A stretch of 64,000 nt of DNA from an uncultured Gemmatimonadales bacterium. Its GTDB lineage: Bacteria > Gemmatimonadota > Gemmatimonadetes > Gemmatimonadales > GWC2-71-9. A model generated the notes under the pieces. That model saw only the letters and a program-made list of their open reading frames with translations, was not told where the DNA came from and did no database searches. Where the stretch lies: the NCBI GenBank assembly GCA_963795085.1, contig CAWCFX010000002.1, positions 192,001-256,000 of the forward strand. Reading direction: 5' to 3'. Position 1 is the first letter of the stretch. Each line of letters starts with the position of its first letter. The translations under genes were made by a program, and so were the position numbers. This document shows positions 3 through 12,365 of this stretch, in pieces.

Positions 3-1580
3 AGTCTCCAGTTCGCCGCGGCCGCGCTGGATGAAAGCGGCCATCTGATTCCCGGCACCACCTTCACCTGGGTTTCCACGGTGCCGGCGACGGCGACCAT
101 CGACGGTTCCGGGCTGGCATTCGCCCAGGCAGTGGGGACGACGACCATCGAGGCGAGCGCCGGGGGCGTCACCGGTTCGACTTCCCTCGCCGTGGTGGTG
201 ACCGTCCAGGCGGGACCGACTCTCACCGCGGTGGGGGGACGCCTCCAGCGCGCGCCGTCCTCCTCCATGCTGCCGGTTCCCTATGTCGTGGAAGCACGGG
301 ACGGGTCCACTCCGCTCCCCAACGTGGAGATATTGTGGACGGTCGAGAGCGGGGGGGGGACGGTCGCCCAGAGCTCTTCGTTTACGGGAAGCGACGGACG
401 GGCGAGCATCCTTCATACCCTCGGGCCGGTGCTCGGAGTGCAACAGGTGCAGGCCCGCGCTCCCTCCCTGGCCCCCGCGGACAGCAACAACAGGAATGTG
501 GCCTTCAGCGCGACGGCTCTCGCGCCGGGCGGCATCGTCCCGGTGGCCAGCGTGGCGATTCCTCCGAATTACGGAATTCACGACACCTTCGTGCGTGAAG
601 GCATTGCCTTCGTGTTCGCGTGGGACAGCGGGGTCCGGATCTTCGACGTGGGCAACGGCATCCGGGGAGGCAGCCCCTCCAACCCGGTGCTGGTCTCCCG
701 GGTCGTCACCCATGGGGGGCAAGCCCATAACGGGTGGTGGTTTCACAATCCAAACACCCAGGAGAAGAAGTACCTGTTCGTCGGCGAAGAAGGCCCCGGC
801 CTGATCGGTAGCTCGTCCTCCGGCGATATCCACGTGATTGATGTCTCCAACCTGGCCGCGCCGCTGGAAGTCGCCTCCTTCACAGTGGCGGGCGCCGGGG
901 CCCACAACTTCTGGATGGACGAGGCCGCCCAGATTCTCTACGCCGCGTTCTACAACGGGGGCGTGGTCTCAATTGATGTCTCGGGCACCCTCAGCGGCAA
1001 CCTCGCCAGCCGGGAAATCGACCGGCTGGTGCCGGCATCCGGCTCCTACATCTGGGGGGTACAACTGTTCAACGGCTCCGTCTACGCCAGCGACATGGTG
1101 AACGGGTTTTGGCAACTTTCGACCACCGGAGGAAACCTGAGTATCGCCGCGGGTGGTGGCAACGTGCCGGAACGGTTCACATCCGACCTGTGGGTCCATG
1201 GCACCCATGCCTACAGCGGGACCTGGGGCAACCGCGGCGCCCAGGGCAATGTGGTGAAGATCTGGTCACTCAATGGGACCGGAGCGCCGGCGCTTGCCGA
1301 TTCCGTCATCATCCCCGCGATCAGCACGGTCAGCGACGTGGAGGTCAGCGCCGACGGCAGCGTGCTCATGGTGAGCACGGAGGGTGGCAGCGGCGACGGC
1401 TTTCAGTTCTACAGCCTGGCCAACCCGGCCAGCCCGGCCTTTCTGAACCAGCACCTGGTGGGGACCGGCATCCACACCACGACGTTCGGGTACATTGGGG
1501 GCCGGACCTACGCCTTCGGGGCCAAGAACCCGGGGAGCCCCGAACTGGTTGTTCTCGATGTCACCGGTCTGTTTCCCTGA
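3..1580 (+). CDS. Ig-like domain + LVIVD-repeat beta-propeller protein (5' truncated at window edge)
   Basis: Frame is open from position 3 (SLQFAAAALDESGHLIPGTTFTWVST, Big_2-like); repeated 'RIFDVGN/IHVIDVSN/LVVLDVT' LVIVD-type blades. Confidence 0.75.
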   Translation, partial: SLQFAAAALDESGHLIPGTTFTWVSTVPATATIDGSGLAFAQAVGTTTIEASAGGVTGSTSLAVVVTVQAGPTLTAVGGRLQRAPSSSMLPVPYVVEARDGSTPLPNVEILWTVESGGGTVAQSSSFTGSDGRASILHTLGPVLGVQQVQARAPSLAPADSNNRNVAFSATALAPGGIVPVASVAIPPNYGIHDTFVREGIAFVFAWDSGVRIFDVGNGIRGGSPSNPVLVSRVVTHGGQAHNGWWFHNPNTQEKKYLFVGEEGPGLIGSSSSGDIHVIDVSNLAAPLEVASFTVAGAGAHNFWMDEAAQILYAAFYNGGVVSIDVSGTLSGNLASREIDRLVPASGSYIWGVQLFNGSVYASDMVNGFWQLSTTGGNLSIAAGGGNVPERFTSDLWVHGTHAYSGTWGNRGAQGNVVKIWSLNGTGAPALADSVIIPAISTVSDVEVSADGSVLMVSTEGGSGDGFQFYSLANPASPAFLNQHLVGTGIHTTTFGYIGGRTYAFGAKNPGSPELVVLDVTGLFP

Positions 1581-1591
1581 TCCCCGCCTCC

Positions 1592-1876
1592 ATGCCCGTC
1601 GTCCTCCAGCGGGATTCCGCGTTTACCCTGAGCCCGGCCGTCCGGGGACGGCAGCTGGATAACGAGCTGATCCTGCTGGACCTTGGCAAGGGGGAGTACT
1701 TCAGCCTGAACGAGAGCGGCGCCGCCGTCTGGGCCTGCCTGGAGCGCGGCATGGCTCTCGGCGCTATTGACGAAGCGATGGCCGGCTGGCCGGTGGCGCC
1801 GGATCAGCGGTGGGAGATGATCACCGCCATCGTGCTCGAGCTTCGGAGCCGGGGACTGCTGGAGCCCGCCGGGTGA
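1592..1876 (+). CDS. PqqD-family RiPP recognition element (lasso B1/E-like)
   Basis: 94 aa, 'RQLDNELILLDLGKGEYFSLNESGAAVWACL...LRSRGLL' is a typical PqqD/RRE pattern; ATG 1592 lies inside the longer 1109 ORF; stop overlaps the next GTG. Confidence 0.9.
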   Translation: MPVVLQRDSAFTLSPAVRGRQLDNELILLDLGKGEYFSLNESGAAVWACLERGMALGAIDEAMAGWPVAPDQRWEMITAIVLELRSRGLLEPAG

Positions 1877-3351
1877 CAGGGCCGGCGGCCTTGGCCGTCC
1901 TGGTTCACGATCCCCGGGTGCGGGAATTCACGCCTGCCACCCTCGCCGAGCTCCGGGTCACCGGCTGGGCGCGTCTCCCCGATGGCGATATCCGGCTCCA
2001 ATCCGATCCAGCCGCCACCCGGCCATTCTGTTACCGGATGCTTGGCCGGACCCTCCACCTCGCCTGCTATCCCGGCGACCTGGCCCGCCTTGGTCCCCCC
2101 CCCGAACTCGACTGGACCACGCTCGCGGGCCTGCCGCGGTTCCGGTTTCCGGACGATGGCGCCACGGCTTTTGCCGGTATCCACCGACTGGCCGCAGGCA
2201 CCACGACGACCATCGCGCCGGATGGCGGCACCCGTTCGCATCGCTGGTGGGAGCTGCCCCCCGAGCCGTCATCGTCCGCCAAGCCGGATCTATTCGGAGC
2301 CCTGGTGCAACAGTGCGCCGGCCAGATCCAGGGCCGGCAGTGCGCCATCCTGCTGAGCGGGGGCCTGGATTCCTCCGCCATCGCGGCCGCGGCGGTGGCA
2401 GCTGCCCGGGCAGGCGGCGGCCCCGATCCGATCCTTGCTTCGCTCGTTTATCCCGGATTGCCCTGCGACGAAGACCTTACCCAGGAGGCCATCGCACGGC
2501 ACTACGGGCTTACGCGGGTCACGGTCAACCCGGTAGGCCGCCCGGTCTGGCCCGGAGCCCTGGGCACGGTCCACTCGCGGCTGGCCCCGGTCGTGGATAC
2601 TCAGTCGGCAGCCATCGGTCAGCTCTTCGAGCAACTGGAGGCCGCCGGATGCCGGGTCGTGCTCACCGGCCTGGGTGGGGATGTCCTGTTTCGCGGCATC
2701 GGGCTGGAAGGGAGCCTGCTGCGGCAGGGCAGACTCCTGGCGATACATCGTCACTTCCGGGGAATTTCCCGGGCCCTGCCGGTCTCGGTGCCAAGGCTCT
2801 GGTGGGCCGGTGTTCTCCGGCCCCTCGCCACCGGACGCCGGGGCCCCGGGCTTTCCCGCGCGGAGGTCCTGCGGGCAGGGAGCTCGGTCCGCAGTACCCT
2901 GATCCGCAACCTCGCGGCCGGCGGTACCGGGTGGTTGACCGAAGCGGTGGAACAATCCGGTAACCATCGCCTGGCCCTGGAGAGTCCGTTCTACGGCGCC
3001 GCCTTTCTTGACCAGTACTCCCGGCTGACCCAGCAGGATTTCGCGTCGAGCGCCTCCCACAAGGGAATCCTTCGCGAGATGATCCGGCCGCACCTGCCCG
3101 CTGCGGTGGTGAACCGCGTCAGGAAGCCGAACTTTCTTGATTATCATGCCACCTGGCTCCATCGGGAGCGCAGTTCCCTCGCGGCTCGCTATCGCGAAGT
3201 GCGGCCGATGGCTCCCGCCTCCATTGACATGCCGGCGGATATTAGCCGGGCCCTCAACGCCACCAGCGGCTCGGACGGGTTCTCCAGCTCCTGGATGAGT
3301 TTGACGATGCTCGAGTTCCTGGCGGCCTGGAACTTGAGGGTCAACCCTTGA
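1873..3351 (+). CDS. Asparagine synthetase-like protein, putative lasso cyclase
   Basis: SGGLDSS PP-loop, 'VLTGLGGD', 'SPFY', 'KGILRE...LPAAVVNR.K'; no N-terminal catalytic Cys of a GATase domain; GTGA coupling to the RRE gene. Confidence 0.85.
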   Translation: MTGPAALAVLVHDPRVREFTPATLAELRVTGWARLPDGDIRLQSDPAATRPFCYRMLGRTLHLACYPGDLARLGPPPELDWTTLAGLPRFRFPDDGATAFAGIHRLAAGTTTTIAPDGGTRSHRWWELPPEPSSSAKPDLFGALVQQCAGQIQGRQCAILLSGGLDSSAIAAAAVAAARAGGGPDPILASLVYPGLPCDEDLTQEAIARHYGLTRVTVNPVGRPVWPGALGTVHSRLAPVVDTQSAAIGQLFEQLEAAGCRVVLTGLGGDVLFRGIGLEGSLLRQGRLLAIHRHFRGISRALPVSVPRLWWAGVLRPLATGRRGPGLSRAEVLRAGSSVRSTLIRNLAAGGTGWLTEAVEQSGNHRLALESPFYGAAFLDQYSRLTQQDFASSASHKGILREMIRPHLPAAVVNRVRKPNFLDYHATWLHRERSSLAARYREVRPMAPASIDMPADISRALNATSGSDGFSSSWMSLTMLEFLAAWNLRVNP

Positions 3352-3417
3352 CGCCCCGTGCCGGGACGGGCAGCTTTCATTCACCCCTGGAAAAACCGAG
3401 TACCTCAGGAGATCGCC

Positions 3418-3558
3418 ATGGATCGGGAGCGCCCCGCCACGACGGCCAGTATGCCCAGGTTCGAACCCCCCAGGCTGACTCCGCTGGGGAGTGTCACCCG
3501 GGTGACCCAGGCCTTCGAACCTGGCACCAATACCGACTTCACGATGTCGTCGTTCTAG
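3418..3558 (+). CDS. Lasso-type RiPP precursor peptide (leader MDRE...VTQ, core AFEPGTNTDFTMSSF)
   Basis: AGGAG RBS at 3407-3411; leader FEPPRLTPLGSVTRVT fits (Y/F)xxPxLxxxGxxxxxT; Thr at -2; Asp at core position 9. Confidence 0.85.
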   Translation: MDRERPATTASMPRFEPPRLTPLGSVTRVTQAFEPGTNTDFTMSSF

Positions 3559-3656
3559 GCGGAGAGCTCAGCGACCGGGCCGCACCGACTGACGCAACCT
3601 CATTCTGCCGTGCCGCCGACTGAGCCGGACGGCGCCTTCAACCAGACTCCCTCCTG

Positions 3657-4502
3657 ATGCCTCCCGGCATCATCACGCCAACTCTCGCGATCGCCGGGTG
3701 GGAACGGATAGCCCGGCATTCCAGCCTGGCCATCACGGTCCGGTCTGGAACACCTCGCGGAATTGCCGTGCCACCGGGGGTAATTAACCGGGTGGACGGC
3801 GGCTGGGCGTTCACAACCGCCGACGGGCAATGGTACCGAGTCCGGGGACCGGCGCCCGTCGCCGTGGAGGGGTACCCGCTGGAGCAGGCGACCGAACCGG
3901 AATCAGTGCTCCGCCTGTTCGGGCCGGTTACCGCCCTGGTGGCCCAGGTCAGCGGGTGCCAGCCACTTCACGCCGCGGGATTGATGCGGGGAGGGAAGGT
4001 CCTGGCTCTCTGTGCCGAGTCTGGCCAGGGCAAATCCACGCTGGCGGCACTGGCGGCGGCCCACGGATGGCAGGTCCAGGGCGATGACCTGCTCGCGGTG
4101 GACCGATCGGGTATGGTGTTGCCACTACCCGGCTCACTCCGCGTCCGTCCCGAACTGGCGCCGCCGGGATGCACCTCGGCCTGGCATCTGCCCGATGGCC
4201 GGGAATGGTATCCGCTTCCGGCGCCCGCCCATTCCGCCCAACTCGGGGGGATTGTCCGTCTCGCCAGGGGCAGGGAGATCCTGCTGCGCACGCTTCGCGG
4301 CGCCGAACGGCTGGCCACTGTCGCCGTCGCCGCCTTGGCCCCATTCTTCGGCCATGTCGAGAACGATCCGCATCCCGCCCGGCTGCTGGACCTGGCCGGG
4401 GCCACTCCAGCCTGGCATCTCACCGTGCCTGAAGGGCTGACCCGCCTGCGCGAGTCCTGGGGCATATTGGATGGCCTGCTCACCGGTCTCCTCGGCGAAT
4501 GA
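3657..4502 (+). CDS. HPr kinase-like RiPP kinase
   Basis: LHAA, P-loop AESGQGKST and GDD motifs of the HPrK family; directly after the precursor gene. Confidence 0.85.
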   Translation: MPPGIITPTLAIAGWERIARHSSLAITVRSGTPRGIAVPPGVINRVDGGWAFTTADGQWYRVRGPAPVAVEGYPLEQATEPESVLRLFGPVTALVAQVSGCQPLHAAGLMRGGKVLALCAESGQGKSTLAALAAAHGWQVQGDDLLAVDRSGMVLPLPGSLRVRPELAPPGCTSAWHLPDGREWYPLPAPAHSAQLGGIVRLARGREILLRTLRGAERLATVAVAALAPFFGHVENDPHPARLLDLAGATPAWHLTVPEGLTRLRESWGILDGLLTGLLGE

Positions 4503-6289
4503 GCACGCCGGACGCGGTCGGGCAACGCCGGCCGAGGGGACGGGACCTGGTCATGCTCGGGCTGGCGGCGGGACTTCTCACCGGGCTGGGCGAAACGGTC
4601 CTCCTGCTGGTGAAACGGTTCCTCCGGGGCCGATTCATCACGGTTGGGGAGCACGCGCTCTGGATGGCGCCGGTCGCGGACGCGCTCCTCTTCACGCTAC
4701 TCGCCATCATCTTCGTGGCGCTTACCCGCCGGGTCAGCGTCGAGCGGCGGGACCGCCTCTTTGCCACCATGCTGGTGGCCCTGGGCCTCACGGCGATGCT
4801 GACCCTGTGGGGCCGTTTCCATTGGGTCGCCACGATCCTGCTCAGCCTCGGCATCGCGGTGCGATTGAGCGGACGGATCGCTCCCCGGCTGGATGCCCTG
4901 ATGAGGGCGGGGCGGGCGGCCATGCCGGGGATGGCGGTCCTGGTCCTGCTCACGGCGGCCGGCGTCGCCGGGGAAGCCTGGTGGAAGGAGCGTAAGAGCC
5001 TCGAGGCGACCCCCGCGGGATCCCAGCCTAATGTCCTGCTGATCATCCTGGACACCGTTCGCAGCCTGAGTATGGGCCTGTACGGACATGCCCGGGACAA
5101 CACACCCGAGCTGGCTCGCTGGGCCGCCCGGGGCACCGTCTTCGATCACGCCTTCTCCTCGTCCTCCTGGACCCTTCCCTCTCATGCCGCCATGTTCACC
5201 GGCCGGTGGCAAACCGATCTCACGGTCCGATTCAACCGCCCCCTCGACAGCACCTGGCCTACCCTGGCTGAATTCCTGGGGGACCGCGGGTATGCGACGG
5301 GGGGGTTCGTGGCCAACCTGATCTACACGCCCCGGGAATCCGGCCTGGCCCGCGGGTTCGGCCACTACGAGGATTTCGGCCTCAACGTCCGGGTGTTCAT
5401 TCGCAGTGCCACCCTGCTGCGGAAGCTGGTGGACCGGCCCCGGTTCCGCTGGGCCGCCCGGCCCCGGCACCCCATGCTGTGGAAGACGGCCCGGGAAGTC
5501 TCCGGGGGAGCGCTCGACTGGATCGACCGGCAGGAGGAGGACCGGCCCTGGTTCGCCTTCCTCAACTACATGGAGGCGCATGATCCCTGGTATGTCCCGG
5601 CTCCCTTCGATACCCTCTACGGGAATGGGGCCCTTCATATCTCATGGGCGGAGATGACCGCGACGCCGCTGCCCCCGCCGGTTGCCCTGGTCCGCTTCGC
5701 CGAGGGCTACGATGCGGCCATCGCCTATCTGGATCAGGAGATCGGCAGCCTGCTTGACACGCTCGAGCGGCGCGGGCGGCTTCGCAATACGATCGTCGTG
5801 ATTACCTCGGATCACGGCGAAGAGATCGGCGAGCACCAGTTCCTGGGGCATGGCGCCAGCCTCTACCGGCCGACCGTGGAGGTCCCCCTGATCGTAATCG
5901 CGCCCGGCTGCGCAATGTCCGGAGGCCGGGCACCGGATCCGGTATCGCTCCGGGACTTCGCCGCGACCATCATGGACCTCACCGGTATGCCGGAGCATCC
6001 TTTTCCCGGGGCTTCCTTCGCGGCCCTGGCCTGTCCCGGCAACGACACCCAGGCCTATCCCCGGCCGGTCTTCTCTGTGCTTCAGGAGGCCCGGGGACGC
6101 GCCAACCCTACCCTGGTCTCGGTGGTCCAGGATTCTTTCCGGTTTATCGGGGATGGACAGGGCAGGGGGGAACTCTACAGTTTTTACGGCGATCCGCTGG
6201 AACAACACGACCTGGCCGCCCAGCCGATGCTGGGTCCTGCCTTGCTCCGGCTCCAGACCCTGGCCGACTCACTCCGAAAACCTCACTGA
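4499..6289 (+). CDS. Membrane-anchored sulfatase/alkaline-phosphatase superfamily enzyme
   Basis: About 5 N-terminal TM segments; 'PNVLLIILDTVR', 'SWTLPSHAAMFTG', 'AHDP', 'TSDHGE', 'GHG' motifs. Confidence 0.85.
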   Translation: MSTPDAVGQRRPRGRDLVMLGLAAGLLTGLGETVLLLVKRFLRGRFITVGEHALWMAPVADALLFTLLAIIFVALTRRVSVERRDRLFATMLVALGLTAMLTLWGRFHWVATILLSLGIAVRLSGRIAPRLDALMRAGRAAMPGMAVLVLLTAAGVAGEAWWKERKSLEATPAGSQPNVLLIILDTVRSLSMGLYGHARDNTPELARWAARGTVFDHAFSSSSWTLPSHAAMFTGRWQTDLTVRFNRPLDSTWPTLAEFLGDRGYATGGFVANLIYTPRESGLARGFGHYEDFGLNVRVFIRSATLLRKLVDRPRFRWAARPRHPMLWKTAREVSGGALDWIDRQEEDRPWFAFLNYMEAHDPWYVPAPFDTLYGNGALHISWAEMTATPLPPPVALVRFAEGYDAAIAYLDQEIGSLLDTLERRGRLRNTIVVITSDHGEEIGEHQFLGHGASLYRPTVEVPLIVIAPGCAMSGGRAPDPVSLRDFAATIMDLTGMPEHPFPGASFAALACPGNDTQAYPRPVFSVLQEARGRANPTLVSVVQDSFRFIGDGQGRGELYSFYGDPLEQHDLAAQPMLGPALLRLQTLADSLRKPH

Positions 6290-6777
6290 TGGAAACCATC
6301 AACCGCCGATCCGCCCAGCACATCACCCGGAGTGGATTGTTCCCGCTTCGCTGTGCCGTCCTGAACCTCCCGTACGGGCCCCTGGCGGTATTCAGCCCGT
6401 CCGAAGGCCTCAAGCGAGTATTGGTTGAGACCGCCGGCCTGCGGGACGTCGAGATCCTGGGCGACGGTACCTTCGGGCTGACTCGGGCCGGGAAGGTTCT
6501 CCTGCCTGACCCCACCCCGCTGACCGCCCTGGTCAATCTGGTCGAAGGGGACCATTGCGCCCTGGGGCGGGTCGGTGGGCAGCGACGGCTCTCGATGCTC
6601 CTTGCGGCGGGATCGACCGGCGAGCTGGAGCCGGTTGCGGGCGATCCCTGGTACGACTCGCTCCTCGACATCACGGCCTCGCTCCCGGTCTGGGAGATGG
6701 TGCTTCCGCCCGAGCGCCGGGACATGCGCGCGGCCTGGCCCGAGATCGCCATGTTGCTGGCCGAATCGGCGTCATGA
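6289..6777 (+). CDS. Degenerate HPr-kinase-like paralog (putative pseudokinase)
   Basis: Ungapped by-eye similarity to the 3657-4502 kinase at both ends with catalytic motifs altered; start/stop overlaps on both sides. Confidence 0.65.
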   Translation: METINRRSAQHITRSGLFPLRCAVLNLPYGPLAVFSPSEGLKRVLVETAGLRDVEILGDGTFGLTRAGKVLLPDPTPLTALVNLVEGDHCALGRVGGQRRLSMLLAAGSTGELEPVAGDPWYDSLLDITASLPVWEMVLPPERRDMRAAWPEIAMLLAESAS

Positions 6778-7802
6778 CGGCCGAGCCCGCGCCGCTGGCC
6801 TGGGTGATCCTCATGGCCGCGGGGCGGGAGGTGGCGGTGCCCTCCGCCGAGTCGTGGCAGACACATCTGGAATGCCTCCGCCGCAGCCGCCTGGTTCCGC
6901 TGGCCGCCCACCTGCTCCAATCCAGATTCCAGGAACTGCACCCGGACACCCGGCGCTATCTCGAGGCCGCCACGATGATGGCGGAATCAAACGTCGAGCA
7001 GGCGGCCAGCGCACTGGTGGAGATTGCCGCCCGGTTCGACCGGCGTGCCATCCGCTGGGTGGTGCTCAAGGGGTATCCGCTGGCCGCTCGGCTCTATCCG
7101 AGACCTTCCTGCCGGCCCAGTGGTGACATAGACCTGCTGGTTGACGAGCCGTCGCTGGCGGCTGCGGAGGAGGATTTAGTGGAAGCGGGGTACCGGGCGG
7201 AGGGAGCGGACCGTTCCTACCATCTCCGGCTGGTCCGGAAGGGTCAAACGGGGACCCAGGTCGTCGAGCTTCACCATCGGGCCGCGCCCGCCGCCCACGG
7301 AGGGCCCCGGACGGCAGACATTCTGGCCCACCGGCGGGCCTTCCCGATCTCCGGGTCCACCGGGTGGCTGCCTTCGGCCGGGCATGAGGTCGATCTATTG
7401 ATCCGCCACTACCTGCGGCACGCGGGCCACCAGGCCATCTGGCTGGTGGACCTCCTGCTGCTTTCGGCCGGGACCCCGCTGTGGCACCGGCTGGGATCGC
7501 CCATTGGCGATGACCTCGAGCGGGTGGGGCTACCCCGCCTGGTTGACGGGCCGGCCCGCTATTCCCTGCGCCCACTGCGCCGCTGGATGGCCCGGCGAAC
7601 TTTCGAGGAGCGGCACACGGCGCGGCACATCTCGCCGGTCGGCACGGCGCTCGCGCTGGCCGAGTCGCCCGGGGCGGCATCCCGGATGCTGGCGAGGCTG
7701 GCGTGGCCAAGCCAGCCTACCCCGCGTTGGTTCGCCACCAGTCACACCAGTTGGGGCCGCTACACCTGGCGGATCCGGCGCTTGTTCAAGCTGGGAGGCT
7801 GA
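6774..7802 (+). CDS. Nucleotidyltransferase family protein (NTP_transf_5-like)
   Basis: 'VVLKGYPLAARLYP.PSCRPSGDIDLLV' and 'VELHH' motifs; ATGA overlap with the upstream gene. Confidence 0.85.
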   Translation: MTAEPAPLAWVILMAAGREVAVPSAESWQTHLECLRRSRLVPLAAHLLQSRFQELHPDTRRYLEAATMMAESNVEQAASALVEIAARFDRRAIRWVVLKGYPLAARLYPRPSCRPSGDIDLLVDEPSLAAAEEDLVEAGYRAEGADRSYHLRLVRKGQTGTQVVELHHRAAPAAHGGPRTADILAHRRAFPISGSTGWLPSAGHEVDLLIRHYLRHAGHQAIWLVDLLLLSAGTPLWHRLGSPIGDDLERVGLPRLVDGPARYSLRPLRRWMARRTFEERHTARHISPVGTALALAESPGAASRMLARLAWPSQPTPRWFATSHTSWGRYTWRIRRLFKLGG

Positions 7803-7806
7803 TCGG

Positions 7807-9795
7807 TCAGGGCTGCGGTCCTCCGGCCGGCGCCCGTGGCCACCCGTTGTTCTCCCGCCGGACTTCGGGGAACGCCCGGTCCGGGTCGATGCGCACCGAG
7901 GTCACGCGGGTGGGACCCGGTATCGCGGCCACGTAGGTGTCGCCGTAGTACCAGATCTCGACCGGCAGCGTCACCCGGCGGCTGAATCCGTCGTCCATCA
8001 TCAGGTCCATCACCACCGGCACCGGCATCGGGCCGATCTTCCGCAGGTAGATCAGCGAGAGGGGCTGCCCGGTGCTGTCGGGCGTCCGGACCGAGTCCAC
8101 GGCGATGTCCATCGTCTCCGTCGTGTAGAAGTAACTCCGCCAGAACCAGCTCAGGTCCTCCCCTGCGCCGTCCTCGATCGTCCTGAAAAAATCCGCCGGC
8201 GTGGGGTGCCGGTACTGCCAGCGCCGGATGAACTCCTTGAACGCAGGATCGAAACGATCCGGGCCGAGGATGTAGTCCCGGAGCAGCCGAAGCCCCAGCC
8301 CGGGTTTGTTGTAGGCTACCATGCCGAGGCCGGAAGGGTCTGTCCGGTCCGCGGGGGTAGCGATGGGCTGTTCCCGGCCGCTCAGCGCGAACTGGATCTG
8401 GAGATCGGTGTTGGCCCGCCGGTTGAACCTCCCGGGATACTTCGCCTCCCAGTTGTAGTAGTTCATGAACGTGTTGAACCCCTCGTCCATCCAGGGGTAG
8501 AGTCGTTCGTTGTTCCCGACCAGCATGGGAAACCAGGTGTGCCCGAATTCGTGATCGGTGACGCTGTAGAGCGCTTCGGCCCCATCGCGGTTGCAGAAGA
8601 TGATCATGGGATATTCCATGCCGCCCTCCCGCCCGTTGATGTTGATGGCCATGGGGTAGGGGTAGGGCCACCACTGCTCCGAGTAGCGCTCGATGGCGGT
8701 CTTGCCGTACTGGGTCGCCAGGTGCCAGGTGGAGTCCGCCGAAGGCGGATACAGGCTCATCACCAGGACGTTGCCACCGTTGGCACGGGCGGCGTCCCAC
8801 ACGAAGTGAGTGGCCGCGGCCCAGGCGAAGTCGCGCACACTGTCGGCCACGAATCGCCAGGTCAGCGTCCCGGCTCGGGAGGCGGGACGGGTGGCCGGAT
8901 CCCGGACTTCGTCCTTCCCCCGAATGATCACGGTGGTGTCGCTGGCCCGGGCGGCTGCCAGCCGGGTCCGCTGGACCGGGGTCAGCACCGCTACCGGGTT
9001 CTGCAGGGTCCCGGTCGCGGCCACGATCATACTGGCCGGGACGGTGAGACTGACGTCGAACTTTCCGTACTCGAGATAGAACTCGCCATTGCCCATGTAT
9101 GGCTCGGTATTCCAGCCCCGGATATCGTCGTAGACCGCGAGCCGGGGATACCACTGGGCCACCTCGTAGATGACGTCTCCATCTACGGTGACGATCCCCA
9201 TCCGGCTGTTGATCTCTTCAAGGAAAGGGAAATACCACTCCACGTCGAACACCACCTTGCCGCCGGGCGGGAGCGGCCGGGCCAGGTCCACCCGCATCAG
9301 GGTCCCGTTGATCCGGTAGCGGAGTTCGGAGGCCCGCTGGGCCGGCCGCCCCGGGGCCGCCGCCAGCGCCGGCTGGGAGACGCCGCCAATAGTGACTCCG
9401 CCGTCGGCCCCGCCGGTGCCGAAGCGCGCGTCCGGCGGAACCACCAGGCTGCCCCGGCTGTCGGAGCGGAACAGGTTCTGGTCCAGTTGCAGCCAGAGGT
9501 ATCGGAGCGTATCGGGCGAATGGTTGCTGTAGGTGATCCGCTCCTCTCCCGTGAGGATCTTCCGGGCGGTATCGAGGGTGGCCCGAATGACGTAGTCCAC
9601 CCGCTGCTGCCAGTACTCCCGTCCCGGCGCCCCGCTCCCGGTGCGGTACCGGTTGGGGGCCGGGAGATCGAGCCGGCGGAAGGGCGAACCATCGGCCGTG
9701 GGTTCGGGCACCGGGGCGCTGGCGGTGCGCGGCTGCTGGGCCGCGAGCGGGAGAGCCAGGAAAGCCAGCAGCAGACAAGACGGGGAGGTACGCAC
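7807..9795 (-). CDS. Secreted M1 family zinc metallopeptidase
   Basis: Signal peptide, 'YWQQRVDY', GGMEYP, HEFGH...MDEG; GTG 9795 overlaps the upstream stop and follows an AGGAG. Confidence 0.9.
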   Translation of the reverse strand: MRTSPSCLLLAFLALPLAAQQPRTASAPVPEPTADGSPFRRLDLPAPNRYRTGSGAPGREYWQQRVDYVIRATLDTARKILTGEERITYSNHSPDTLRYLWLQLDQNLFRSDSRGSLVVPPDARFGTGGADGGVTIGGVSQPALAAAPGRPAQRASELRYRINGTLMRVDLARPLPPGGKVVFDVEWYFPFLEEINSRMGIVTVDGDVIYEVAQWYPRLAVYDDIRGWNTEPYMGNGEFYLEYGKFDVSLTVPASMIVAATGTLQNPVAVLTPVQRTRLAAARASDTTVIIRGKDEVRDPATRPASRAGTLTWRFVADSVRDFAWAAATHFVWDAARANGGNVLVMSLYPPSADSTWHLATQYGKTAIERYSEQWWPYPYPMAININGREGGMEYPMIIFCNRDGAEALYSVTDHEFGHTWFPMLVGNNERLYPWMDEGFNTFMNYYNWEAKYPGRFNRRANTDLQIQFALSGREQPIATPADRTDPSGLGMVAYNKPGLGLRLLRDYILGPDRFDPAFKEFIRRWQYRHPTPADFFRTIEDGAGEDLSWFWRSYFYTTETMDIAVDSVRTPDSTGQPLSLIYLRKIGPMPVPVVMDLMMDDGFSRRVTLPVEIWYYGDTYVAAIPGPTRVTSVRIDPDRAFPEVRRENNGWPRAPAGGPQP

Positions 9796-11753
9796 TACGG
9801 GGCTCCTTTCCACTCGTTGTTGGCCGGGTTCACGTCCGGCAGCATGCCATCCGCATTGACGGTGGCCGACCGGACCGGTGCCGACGTCGGCACGCTGGCG
9901 ATGTACCGGTCGCCGTTATACCAGATCTCCACCGGGAACCGGACCACCTCGGTGGATCCATCCTGCAGCACCATCGTGAGGGTCACCGGCATCACCTGCC
10001 CGCCCAGGTTGCGGAGGGTGACGCGGGCCAGGTTGCGGCCGCCCGCGGCCCGCTGGGTTACCGACTCGATCCCCTGGTCCAGTGCAGCAGTGGTAAAGAT
10101 CCATCCCCGCCAGAACCAGGACAGGTCGCGGCCGGAGACGTCCTCCATGGTTCTGATGAAATCCGCCGGGTAGGGGTGCTTGAAGGCCCAGCGGCGGATG
10201 TACTCCCGGAACGCCGCGTCGAACACGGTGGAATCGAGCACCTGGTGGCGCAGCGTGAGCAGCATCAGCGACGGCTTGATGTAGGCCAGGCTTCCGAGGT
10301 TGTTGTCGCCCCGGTACCGGTTGGCGGGCGTGATCATGGGCTGGGCGGCGGGGAGCCGGTCGTTCTGCAGGACGAACGCCAGCTCGCCCTGGCGGACCTG
10401 GGAATCATCGCGGGAGAAGTATCCCTCCTCCGCGAAGGTGTTGATGAAGGTGTTGAACCCCTCGTCCATCCAGGCGAAGCGCCGCTCATCGCTGCCCACG
10501 ATCATCGGGAACCAGTTATGTCCAATCTCGTGGGTCACGACGCTGAAGACCTCCGCCAGGCTCCCGGCATCCGATTCCATGGCGAGCATGGGGTACTCCA
10601 TGCCGGAGACCGGCCCCTCGACCGCGGAGATCTGCGGATAGGGATAGCGGAACCAGCGGGTGCTGTACTCCATGATCGAATAGCGGGACTGGCGCGCCAC
10701 GTCCGACCAGTTGGCCCGCGCCGCCGGCCGGTAGTAGGCATGGGCCAGCACCCCGTCCCAGCCGGCCGCATCCCAGAGATACTCCGGAGAGGCGGCCCAG
10801 GCCACGTCCCGGACATTGGCTGCCCGGAACTTCCAGGTGAGGGTGCCGCCGGCGCGGGGCCGTGCCGTTCCGGCGCGAAGATCCTGCTCGCGGATGATCG
10901 GCACCGCGGTATCCGATGTCCGGGCCACCGCGAGCCGGGATCGCTGGTCCGCGGTCAGGACTTCGAGCGGGTTCGCAAGCGTCCCGGTGCCGGCGACGAT
11001 GAATCCCGCGGGGAGGGTTACCTGGTAGTCAATGTCGCCGTACTCGAGGTAGAACTCGCCCTGGCCCAGGTAGGGATCGGTGCTCCAGCCCTCGACATCG
11101 TCGTACACCGCCATCCGGGGATACCACTGGGCCATTTCGTAGAGGCTGCCTTCCCGCCCCATCCGGTCAGCGCCGTGCTCGGGAATGTTGAAGTGGTAGC
11201 GAATCGCCAGCGAGGTGGCCCGCCCGGGCGCCACCGGCGTCGCGAGCGCGACCCGCATCATGGTGCCGTCCACCCAGGTGGTGACCGGCAGGCGGGCCGC
11301 CGCGGTCCGGGGCCGGTTTGCACCGCCGGTGAGCGCGGGCGTCGGTACCTGGACGATGTCTTCGATTGTGTAGCCGCCCTCGAAGCCGGCGCCGCCGAAC
11401 CGGCTGGCCGAGGCATTCAGCAGGGCGCCGGCACTCCCGGGCCGAAACAGGTTCTGGTCCAGCTGTAACCAGAGCTGCGCCAGGGTGTCCGGTGAATTGT
11501 TGGTGTAGCGGATGGTGACGGACCCGCTGAGGCGCTGGGTTGCCGTATCCAGGGTGACGGCGATCGAATAGTCGGCGCGCTGCTGCCAATACCCCGGTCC
11601 GGGAGCGCCGTTAGGCCGCCGGGCCAGGCCCGGGGCGGAAAGGGGCAGGGGACTGAAGATCCCGGTATCGGCGACCACGGACTTCGAGCTGGTCTGTTGG
11701 GCATGCACGGGGTAACCGAGCACCAGGAGCGGGAGCAGCCATAACGGGCGCAC
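9795..11753 (-). CDS. Secreted M1 family zinc metallopeptidase (tandem paralog)
   Basis: Signal peptide, 'YWQQRADY', SGMEYP, HEIGH...MDEG. Confidence 0.9.
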   Translation of the reverse strand: MRPLWLLPLLVLGYPVHAQQTSSKSVVADTGIFSPLPLSAPGLARRPNGAPGPGYWQQRADYSIAVTLDTATQRLSGSVTIRYTNNSPDTLAQLWLQLDQNLFRPGSAGALLNASASRFGGAGFEGGYTIEDIVQVPTPALTGGANRPRTAAARLPVTTWVDGTMMRVALATPVAPGRATSLAIRYHFNIPEHGADRMGREGSLYEMAQWYPRMAVYDDVEGWSTDPYLGQGEFYLEYGDIDYQVTLPAGFIVAGTGTLANPLEVLTADQRSRLAVARTSDTAVPIIREQDLRAGTARPRAGGTLTWKFRAANVRDVAWAASPEYLWDAAGWDGVLAHAYYRPAARANWSDVARQSRYSIMEYSTRWFRYPYPQISAVEGPVSGMEYPMLAMESDAGSLAEVFSVVTHEIGHNWFPMIVGSDERRFAWMDEGFNTFINTFAEEGYFSRDDSQVRQGELAFVLQNDRLPAAQPMITPANRYRGDNNLGSLAYIKPSLMLLTLRHQVLDSTVFDAAFREYIRRWAFKHPYPADFIRTMEDVSGRDLSWFWRGWIFTTAALDQGIESVTQRAAGGRNLARVTLRNLGGQVMPVTLTMVLQDGSTEVVRFPVEIWYNGDRYIASVPTSAPVRSATVNADGMLPDVNPANNEWKGAP

Positions 11754-11897: not shown

Positions 11898-12365
11898 ATG
11901 TCACAGGGACTCCAGGCCGAGATCAAGCAGCGGGTTCCGTTCCGGAGCGCCGGGACTGAACTGATGCTGAGCATTCTGCGCACCGCGGCGCTCCTGGAAC
12001 ACGGGTTATCCGAGGTACTCAAGCCATTCGGCCTCACGGGAACTCAGCATAACGTGCTGCGGATTCTTCGAGGAGCCGGCGCCAAGGGGCTCTGCGGCAG
12101 GGAAATAGGCGAGCGAATGATCTCCCGGGTTCCCGATGTCCCCCGCATGCTGGACCGGATGGAGGCCATGCGGCTGATCACCCGGGAGCGGGACCAGGAG
12201 GACCGCCGCCACGTCACCGCCCGTATCTCGCCGGCCGGGCTGGCCCTCCTCGAGCGAGTGGATCCCCTCCTCGAGGCGTATGAAAATGCCAGGCTGGGTG
12301 GCCTGACCGGCGCCCGGCTCAAGAGCCTGATCGACGGGTTGGCGCAGGTACGGGAGCAGCTCTGA
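11898..12365 (+). CDS. MarR family transcriptional regulator
   Basis: 'GLTGTQHNVLRIL', winged helix 'RERDQEDRRHV'. Confidence 0.92.
   Translation: MSQGLQAEIKQRVPFRSAGTELMLSILRTAALLEHGLSEVLKPFGLTGTQHNVLRILRGAGAKGLCGREIGERMISRVPDVPRMLDRMEAMRLITRERDQEDRRHVTARISPAGLALLERVDPLLEAYENARLGGLTGARLKSLIDGLAQVREQL

Follow-up and report, generated by a model that had tools for sequence, protein, structure and literature searches.

A predicted lasso-type peptide island of one Gemmatimonadota genus with kinase and nucleotidyltransferase genes, a Thr-type membrane sulfatase-fold enzyme and a candidate B2 protease encoded elsewhere

What would be made by seven tightly packed genes that combine the core enzymes of lasso peptide synthesis with a kinase, a pseudokinase, a nucleotidyltransferase and a membrane enzyme of the sulfatase fold? 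The question is raised by positions 1592-7802 (+ strand) of a 64,000-nucleotide stretch of contig CAWCFX010000002.1, from an uncultured Gemmatimonadales bacterium (GCA_963795085.1); the whole stretch that was analysed is here called the window. As far as its sequence can tell, this segment is a real, conserved and genus-restricted lasso-type island. It very probably encodes a lasso-type peptide that is made by ribosomes and modified after translation (RiPP), with kinase/nucleotidyltransferase tailoring. Our fuller reading, to which we give a probability of roughly 0.7, is an island for a phosphorylated lasso-type peptide of the paeninodin/pseudomycoidin type, in which the leader protease (B2) acts in trans and the sulfatase-fold enzyme is a dedicated component. 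The genes of the island and the parts of its precursor are as follows.

1592-1876, + strand: B1, a RiPP recognition element (RRE) of the PqqD family, 94 amino acids (PF05402, 37.4 bits; cut-off 23.4)
1873-3351, + strand: lasso cyclase, Asn-synthetase-like, 492 amino acids (PF00733, 70.1 bits; cut-off 21)
3407-3411, + strand: ribosome-binding site AGGAG, 6 nt before the precursor ATG at 3418
3418-3558, + strand: precursor, 46 amino acids, with a lasso-type leader and core
3418-3510, + strand: leader as read from the sequence, 31 amino acids, FEPPRL..LG.....T-Q
3511-3555, + strand: core, AFEPGTNTDFTMSSF, which starts AFEPGTNTD
3657-4502, + strand: HPrK-like peptide kinase, 281 amino acids (TIGR04352, 34.7 bits; below the cut-off of 200)
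4499-6289, + strand: membrane sulfatase-fold (alkaline-phosphatase superfamily) enzyme, 596 amino acids (PF00884, 163.7 bits)
6289-6777, + strand: pseudokinase, 162 amino acids, a paralogue of the kinase C-terminal domain (hhalign probability 97.4%, E 1.4e-11)
6774-7802, + strand: nucleotidyltransferase-fold enzyme, PF14907 (NTP_transf_5), PsmN-type, 342 amino acids (PF14907, 128.9 bits)

The layout is as the original prediction had described it, with seven co-directional and mostly overlapping genes that run from the RRE to the nucleotidyltransferase over 6.2 kb. Neighbouring genes share 1-4 nt at four of the six junctions, and the cyclase GTG start overlaps the RRE stop as GTGA. The only two gaps, of 66 and 98 nt, lie on either side of the precursor gene. 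G+C content by codon position shows a coding pattern in all seven frames (the genome has 67% G+C). Searches with PF05402, PF00733, PF00884 and PF14907, which had been proposed together with that prediction, each found a match.

Is there a peptide pathway here at all? The RRE is the sole PqqD-family match in the genome, and the genome has only one lasso-type cyclase gene. Five islands were readable: that of the window; L003, which matches contig C436 of genome G403 coordinate for coordinate and is counted once; L082, a metagenome contig; that of genome G402, on the short contigs L176 and L177; and that of genome G404 (L175). The RRE is kept in all five at 45-52% identity and always precedes the cyclase. 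A long stop-to-stop frame in L003 and L082 has the look of an RRE-cyclase fusion, which we rejected because the RRE matches in another frame. The cyclase has an SGGLDS ATP-binding motif at residue 162 that is invariant in 12 homologues. It has no glutaminase domain, whereas its more distant hits, ordinary glutamine-dependent Asn synthetases, carry one. Close homologues are rare (13 database proteins, 33-58% identity, PF00733 only), and every one with a visible neighbourhood has an RRE and a precursor alongside. The cyclase is thus no ordinary AsnB; grouping with such enzymes is what the original prediction had named as its own undoing. The names of the homologues fit the Gemmatimonadota origin that it had thought probable. 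It is found in four of the five genomes of the genus, the missing one being 64% complete (G401), and in none of 400 other sampled genomes of the phylum at E ≤ 1e-20. Three further loci with a cyclase homologue and a sulfatase match (L010, L028 and L074) were not counted; their genes lie 3-6 kb apart and are distantly related.

The more specific profile models are less generous. The NCBIfam lasso PqqD models NF033530 and NF033536 match the RRE below cut-off. For the cyclase, the best NCBIfam match is a macrolactam-cyclase family, far below its cut-off (NF033561, 65.3 bits versus 300), and the cyclase model NF033535 gives 29.6 bits versus 525. Since these models are not reached, the cyclase family is assigned at the Pfam level only. 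Polysaccharide amidotransferase models also match the cyclase weakly.

The precursor scores 23.8 bits with NF033528 (cut-off 33) and 18.7 with the lasso leader model NF033521 (cut-off 19). A short open reading frame (ORF) follows the cyclase in all five islands, so the conservation beside cyclase homologues on which the original prediction depended is found. Nine positions are invariant in the five precursors: F15, P17, P18, L20, L23, G24, T30 (position -2), D40 (core Asp9) and S45 (core Ser14). The first dozen residues vary. Core residue 1 is Ala, Ser or Gly among the five islands. A leader motif, Thr at -2, a small first core residue and an acidic residue within core positions 7-9 are all present, with Phe replacing Tyr/Trp at the start of the motif. 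The core implies a predicted ring of nine residues from Ala1 to Asp9, then a six-residue tail. One could still argue that the cyclase is a polysaccharide amidotransferase and the short ORF spurious, given the distant lasso cyclase models, the weak amidotransferase matches and a polysaccharide-type sulfatase-fold gene in the region. We regard this as scarcely credible. The ORF has a ribosome-binding site, its lasso-type positions are invariant in five of five islands while the N-terminal part of the leader varies, the RRE always stands before the cyclase, and the cyclase is without a glutaminase domain. With the intact kinase and nucleotidyltransferase motifs described next, the lasso-type reading of the original prediction is upheld.

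Which enzymes would tailor this peptide? The gene that had been called an HPrK-like kinase deserves the name: besides its sub-threshold TIGR04352 match, it keeps His105, the P-loop GQGKST at 123 (Lys126) and Asp143-Asp144 in all four complete orthologues. It therefore carries the His-Lys-Asp-Asp residues conserved in lasso kinases (PMC9266682). HprK-type kinases are described as phosphorylating the linear precursor (PMC6993621, PMC9266682). We place the predicted phosphorylation at Ser14, since the tail has no other hydroxyl residue that is invariant. The core ends Ser14-Phe15 in the window and three other islands, and Ser14 is terminal only in G404 (GTGLITTTDGFFGS). If Ser14 is the site, these kinases tolerate one residue more than the characterised ones.

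The nucleotidyltransferase gene is the sole PF14907 match in the genome, and its D118-x-D120 is conserved in four of four aligned orthologues. Fusions of a B2 domain to a nucleotidyltransferase are reported for some clusters (PMC8498205). We considered and rejected such a fusion here, as PF14907 spans residues 25-232 and the C-terminal remainder is without Cys. The precedent that had been cited for the kinase/nucleotidyltransferase pair, pseudomycoidin, is correct (PMC6993621, PMC9266682, PMC8498205). According to the account of that cluster, PsmK (poly)phosphorylates the C-terminal Ser, and PsmN is needed for the one or two hexoses found on the phosphate (PMC6993621).

The 162-residue ORF between the sulfatase-fold and nucleotidyltransferase genes had been taken for a kinase paralogue. 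It has no family match, but BLASTP (E 6e-7) and the hhalign result both tie it to the kinase, and its His, P-loop and second Asp are all lost. Its G+C by codon position is 0.71/0.50/0.83. Two database homologues, of 163 and 162 amino acids, are 65% and 48% identical; both are likewise without the His, P-loop and Asp-Asp, and many invariant blocks are shared. Homologues of the same length with the same losses indicate that the pseudokinase is a maintained gene rather than a decaying fragment. Among the five readable islands, it is found in the window only.

Where does the island begin and end? Its neighbours in the window are as follows.

3-1580, + strand: large secreted-type protein with Ig-like (Big_2/Big_1) repeats and LVIVD beta-propeller repeats, running off the window start
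7807-9813 and 9795-11753, - strand: two paralogous M1-family metallopeptidase genes, 47% identical, with a 19-base overlap, converging on the island

All five loci have the same flanks, with an LVIVD-repeat gene on one side and convergent M1-family peptidase genes on the other. In two genomes from other genera of the family, G407 and G033, no island separates the LVIVD gene from the M1 gene, and the two are direct neighbours. At the empty site in G407 (L188:4312-7686, contig C64), the two genes are ~80 bp apart. This adjacency marks 1592-7802 as a discrete insertion and puts the M1 peptidases outside it. We accordingly rejected the downstream M1 genes as members of the system; their homologues occur in 27 of 31 related genomes, and in G407 and G033 they stand next to the LVIVD gene without the island. 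The synteny in relatives that had been suggested as a check is thus present, together with its empty counterpart. Note that the M1 family has many copies per genome in the order Gemmatimonadales. The protein at 3-1580, the conserved left neighbour, has a weak 'choice-of-anchor B' match. Just past the second M1 gene, a 155-residue ORF (11898-12365, + strand) has by sequence the look of a MarR-type regulator.

Within these borders, the islands vary. Gene order outside the window is kinase, nucleotidyltransferase, sulfatase-fold gene; among the five islands, the window alone has the sulfatase-fold gene between kinase and nucleotidyltransferase. The RRE regions of L082 (68-406) and G404 (L175:4114-4451) share 91% DNA identity, whereas the cyclase and precursor genes of these two islands are too diverged for a DNA match and their cores differ (AFVPGNNTDFTMTSF vs GTGLITTTDGFFGS). 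This difference suggests a mosaic in which the cyclase-precursor cassette may have been exchanged within the island. A scan of 1300-8100 for promoters and terminators gave nothing usable: a single promoter-like site, where shuffled sequence averages 0.4, and on the minus strand a single terminator-like site, where it averages 2.3. Folding of the spacer that follows the precursor gene shows no special structure (z-score 0.77). Five public DNA sequencing runs contain 6-9% of the sampled window words.

A lasso pathway of the usual kind would also have a leader protease and an exporter at hand. The original prediction had the gene roster right and overlooked that both are absent. PF13471, the family of the transglutaminase-like B2 proteases, is not found among the seven genes, and tblastn finds no B2 in any of the five islands; there is likewise no ABC exporter in the cluster. 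The genome does have one B2 (PF13471, 66.3 bits; NF033537, 74.1 bits versus a cut-off of 33), located as follows.

L002:8729-9178 (G000:C6:741.7-742.2 kb), - strand: orphan B2, on a contig other than that of the island

This gene lies 48 bp downstream from the gene of an M48 (BepA-like) protease, with a UDG-family gene at its side. The window genome, G402 and G404 all keep it in a VWA-UDG-B2-M48 context, at an identity of 56-60% and with the motifs PPPWRRTCLTR and AHAW. In three genomes of other genera that are without the island cyclase (G407, G033 and G367), the M48-VWA-MFS locus is conserved and the UDG-B2 pair is absent there in each; the orphan B2 is thus co-inherited with the island. Of the other genomes of the genus, G403 (81% complete) and G401 (64% complete) gave no B2. 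Elsewhere, relatives' B2 adjoins a cyclase-like gene, as in ordinary lasso clusters. Between VWA and UDG, the window genome alone has a DUF559 endonuclease-like gene (L002:5708-6199, - strand) and a second, weaker copy (~6561-6956, - strand), which hint at further insertions at this locus.

Thr at -2 is the usual B2 recognition residue (PMC10368454). We predicted the fold of RRE, precursor and orphan B2 together and obtained a median score of 0.44 (runs 0.72, 0.44 and 0.41; best control 0.01), which lends weak support. At least 66% of contacts are common to the runs, and the partner pLDDT (predicted model confidence) is at least 72. In calibration, 116 of 157 solved complexes and 2 of 215 mismatched pairs reached the mark; those that reached it with a score of 0.60 or below were only 18 of the 157 solved complexes and both of the passing mismatches. 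Our input used its own alignments and three chains, unlike the calibration. Because similar B1/B2/leader complexes have already been solved, the pass may reflect likeness only. Given the invariant Thr(-2), the single B2 and single RRE in the genome, the genus-restricted co-occurrence and this weak fold support, we think that the orphan B2 is probably the leader protease, acting in trans.

What is the sulfatase-fold enzyme? It combines a helical membrane domain (residues ~1-167) with a catalytic domain (~175-596). The AlphaFold2 model, built on an alignment of 43 family members, has a pLDDT of 92.5 and places helices at 13-42, 53-75 and 81-104 and a long one at 109-167, followed by the catalytic domain. 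Its nearest solved folds by Foldseek are phosphonate monoester hydrolases and S1 sulfatases (4uph: E 2.5e-21, TM-score 0.58/0.67); LtaS and EptA are not among the top structural matches listed. The EptA/MCR models of NCBIfam cover only ~50 residues (~400-455) around the D-H-G metal site, far below cut-off. A search of the ESM Atlas with the membrane domain (residues 1-172) returned unnamed clusters only.

The earlier description of this enzyme as Thr-type agrees with its alignment both to solved sulfatases and to a true sulfatase of the same genome. At the nucleophile position, W-T-L-P-S-H, with Thr225, aligns with the C-x-P-x-R of the solved enzymes, and the true sulfatase has C-T-P-T-R; all membrane-anchored paralogues and orthologues share the Thr motif. 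W224, T225, S228 and H229 are invariant in the 43 family members, as are the metal ligands D185 and D438-H439. The enzyme thus has the fold and metal ligands of S1 sulfatases without their Cys/Ser-x-Pro/Ala-x-Arg motif, so no formylglycine can form. In the alkaline-phosphatase superfamily, Thr as the nucleophile speaks for transfer of phosphoryl and not of sulfuryl groups. Phosphoryl transfer would make chemical sense beside a peptide kinase.

The same genome encodes eight further paralogues. Seven stand in tandem (L191:10659-19901 and L192:1-7495; G000:C6:525658-542395), together with a PMT_2-like membrane protein, in a polysaccharide locus of the exosortase (EpsH/EpsI) kind that also encodes a Wza-like exporter, a priming sugar transferase and a GT2. 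In the same direction, and with stops and starts that overlap, the array continues into CysN/CysC-like, CysQ + adenylylsulfate (APS)-kinase and CysD-like genes for the synthesis of 3'-phosphoadenosine-5'-phosphosulfate (PAPS). This arrangement suggests that members of the family may decorate sulfated or phosphorylated exopolysaccharide. The eighth paralogue adjoins glycosyltransferase, epimerase and carbamoyltransferase genes.

From these parts, we propose the following pathway. The RRE would bind the FxxPxL..LG leader of the 46-residue precursor, and the HPrK-like kinase would phosphorylate the linear precursor, most likely at core Ser14. The orphan B2, a cysteine protease from a distant locus, would cut after Thr(-2)-Gln, whereupon the ATP-dependent cyclase would join the Ala1 amine to the Asp9 side chain and leave a nine-residue ring with a six-residue tail. 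The PF14907 enzyme may then decorate the phosphate, as PsmN adds hexose in pseudomycoidin. At the membrane, the phospho- or phosphoglycosyl-Ser would be the target of the sulfatase-fold enzyme, through phosphoryl-ester or related chemistry, and in the window genome the dead kinase paralogue is probably a non-catalytic partner.

The sequences show which genes are there, how they are conserved, where the island ends, which catalytic motifs are kept, and that the sulfatase-fold subfamily and the orphan B2 are inherited with it; from this we infer every chemical step, the phosphorylation site, the threaded topology and the sulfatase-fold substrate. Several observations weigh against this reading. 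The lasso-specific NCBIfam models for RRE, cyclase, precursor and kinase all stay below their cut-offs. The leader motif begins with Phe, versus the Tyr/Trp of the known [Y/W]xxPx[L...] motif as given in PMC13381572. The core has Phe at its C-terminus and Ser in penultimate place, so it lacks the C-terminal Ser of the paeninodin type, and the characterised lasso kinases are described as acting on a C-terminal Ser (PMC9266682, PMC8498205). No transporter family is found among the seven genes, and the empty site fixes the boundaries within which one could lie. The public sequencing runs listed with window words include no RNA run. For the membrane enzyme, Lys + Arg counts favour an N-terminus inside, and if there are five helices the catalytic domain would lie outside; with helix 109-167 unbroken, as AlphaFold2 models it, the domain would stay inside.

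Other such points feed three alternatives, of which the first concerns threading. A six-residue tail is short for a stable thread, and pseudomycoidin, which has the same 1-9 ring, is reported to be unthreaded in its unmodified form, when neither kinase nor nucleotidyltransferase takes part (PMC6993621). Kinase/nucleotidyltransferase RiPP clusters are also described without a cyclase, inside capsular polysaccharide loci (PMC13381572), and the sulfatase-fold family is itself linked to polysaccharide loci in the window genome. The product could then be a branched-cyclic or linear phosphorylated peptide, like the linear polyphosphorylated peptides (LPPs) of Bacillota, and possibly be attached to a glycan. 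We consider this quite unlikely. Every island has an intact cyclase with an invariant SGGLDS, and at Asp9 and at the small first residue of the core the precursors show either no change or a conservative one, which argues for a ring being made. Nor does any of the seven genes match the sort of signal-peptidase family by which LPP clusters are defined.

The second alternative is that host proteases, or the cyclase alone, take off the leader with no part for the orphan B2, and that B2 serves another purpose. Pseudomycoidin can be made, and efficiently, without B1/B2, and a cyanobacterial cluster is described with cyclase, precursor and kinase and no B genes (both PMC6993621). The orphan B2 is on another contig, directly downstream of an M48 gene; none is found in G403, which has the island and is 81% complete; and the complex prediction is only weakly supportive. 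Because B2 and island occur together within just one lineage, their co-occurrence amounts to one evolutionary observation. Even so, Thr(-2) is invariant in the five precursors, the genome has one B2, one RRE and no second lasso-type cyclase, the B2 Cys and His motifs are kept across three species, and B2 stands at its locus in three of three genomes of the island genus versus none of three from other genera. We therefore prefer the orphan B2 in trans and hold its irrelevance to be rather unlikely.

The third alternative makes the sulfatase-fold gene a passenger that acts on the envelope or on polysaccharide, in an island that still yields a phosphorylated lasso peptide. The family is very large: a threshold of E ≤ 1e-30 takes in at least 1937 proteins, most of them named from Gemmatimonadota. 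The eight other paralogues are full-length, share 36-41% identity with the island enzyme and lie mostly in polysaccharide loci, such as the tandem array that reaches the PAPS-synthesis genes. Islands differ in whether they hold one or two copies of the gene, in its lineage (a or b) and in where it stands. All this is compatible with a passenger. Nevertheless, at least one copy is present in five of five islands, and in the window the gene lies inside the inserted unit, not at its edge, and overlaps both the kinase and the pseudokinase gene. An earlier 15-row tree had left the separation of the island copies unresolved. A tree of 25 proteins, made by a quick LG+G4 search and rooted at the midpoint only, sets 15 island and related copies, in the sister lineages a and b, apart from the 10 other paralogues (branch support by SH-aLRT 96), so this subfamily is co-inherited with the island. 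Such a separation speaks for one recruitment with later duplication rather than repeated chance insertion, and one recruitment followed by duplication and differential loss fits the sequences best. We judge the passenger role unlikely and, on balance, favour the sulfatase-fold enzyme as a functional part of the pathway.

A bolder version goes further: RiPP tailoring enzymes would gain a new class in the Thr-type, membrane-anchored sulfatase-fold protein, the dead kinase would hold the substrate, and the protease would work from a separate chromosomal site. We put this forward tentatively and think it less likely than not. If it is true, the phospho or phosphoglycosyl group on Ser14 might be converted to a phosphodiester, the peptide might be transferred by way of it to a membrane or glycan acceptor, or the group might be taken off at the membrane to activate the peptide; the island would then be an undescribed lasso-type branch tied to cell-envelope glycan chemistry.

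How much of this is new? Lasso peptides are sought as stable scaffolds and antibiotics, and their known tailoring chemistry is limited. To this the island adds a dedicated membrane enzyme candidate, a conserved pseudokinase beside an active-type kinase and a conserved, unclustered candidate for the leader protease. Rule-based miners commonly require B2 beside the cyclase, so such clusters would be missed. Full-text searches, whose scope did not extend to subscription literature and the supplementary tables of mining studies, gave, among the papers listed and by their titles or abstracts, no report of an alkaline-phosphatase-superfamily or sulfatase enzyme in a lasso cluster. The sulfatase mentioned in PMC13352647 is unrelated, and the word 'sulfatase' is absent from the review of lasso post-translational modifications (PMC9266682). 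Our literature search found nothing on point for an unclustered lasso leader peptidase. It also found no characterised lasso peptide from Gemmatimonadota, whose lasso clusters are only counted by genome mining, in 29 marine metagenome-assembled genomes, as reported in PMC11316326.

Among known systems, the membrane enzyme shares its catalytic fold and metal ligands with phosphonate monoester hydrolases and S1 sulfatases (4uph, 4upi, 2vqr). It differs from them in that Thr-Leu-Pro-Ser-His replaces Cys/Ser-x-Pro-x-Arg and some 170 residues of helical membrane domain come in addition. LtaS, EptA (MCR) and PptA, membrane phosphotransferases of the alkaline-phosphatase superfamily, have an N-terminal multi-helix membrane domain and then a sulfatase-family domain with a Thr nucleophile. 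The window enzyme has this architecture and the Thr; its EptA/MCR model matches are short and far below cut-off, and the top fold matches listed hold no such structure.

For the glycan side of the comparison, kinase/NTP-transferase RiPP clusters and paeninodin-like lasso clusters are described as sitting inside capsular polysaccharide loci (PMC13381572, 2026). The LPP clusters of Bacillota resemble the island in their discrete RRE, HprK-like kinase, uncharacterised NTP-transferase and polysaccharide-locus link, and their [Y/W]xxPx[L/V/I/F/A]-like leader resembles the island leader. They differ, in the same account, by an archaeal-type signal peptidase, an MsbA-like exporter and the lack of a cyclase (PMC13381572); the island has a cyclase and neither of the other two. 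The LPP NTP-transferase is reported as inactive in a heterologous host, perhaps because it needs a partner encoded outside the core cluster (PMC13381572). The island may bear on what PF14907 enzymes do and on which partner they need. The polysaccharide-locus reports and the neighbourhoods of the sulfatase-fold genes fit, but do not prove, a link between phosphopeptide and glycan chemistry.

Nearer relatives are the phosphorylated lasso peptides. Like the island, the putative cluster of Stanieria cyanosphaera PCC 7437 has a cyclase, a precursor, a PsmK-type kinase and no B2 in the cluster; as described in PMC6993621, it has no B proteins at all and a recognisable glycosyltransferase, whereas the island has an RRE and an orphan B2 elsewhere. 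Paeninodin (pade), ThcoK and SyanK share a His-Lys-Asp-Asp HprK-type kinase that acts on the linear precursor near its C-terminus (PMC9266682, PMC8498205). These kinases are described as specific for a C-terminal Ser, unlike the penultimate Ser of the island core, and pade-type clusters hold B1, B2, C and D together (PMC9266682, PMC8498205). Pseudomycoidin (psm) of Bacillus pseudomycoides DSM 12442 resembles the island in its RRE and its Asn-synthetase-type cyclase, in a ring that links Ala1 with acidic residue 9, as is predicted for the island, and in an HprK-like kinase plus a PF14907-type NTP-transferase acting on the phosphate (PMC6993621). In the passages of that source on the psm cluster, which belongs to Bacillota, B2 and an ABC exporter are in the cluster, the core ends in Ser, and there is neither a sulfatase-fold gene nor a pseudokinase. 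By its sequence, the island is a variation on this paeninodin/pseudomycoidin plan: its B2 is unclustered, it has no exporter, its leader motif starts with Phe, its core ends Ser-Phe with Ser in penultimate place, and a sulfatase-fold enzyme and a pseudokinase are added.

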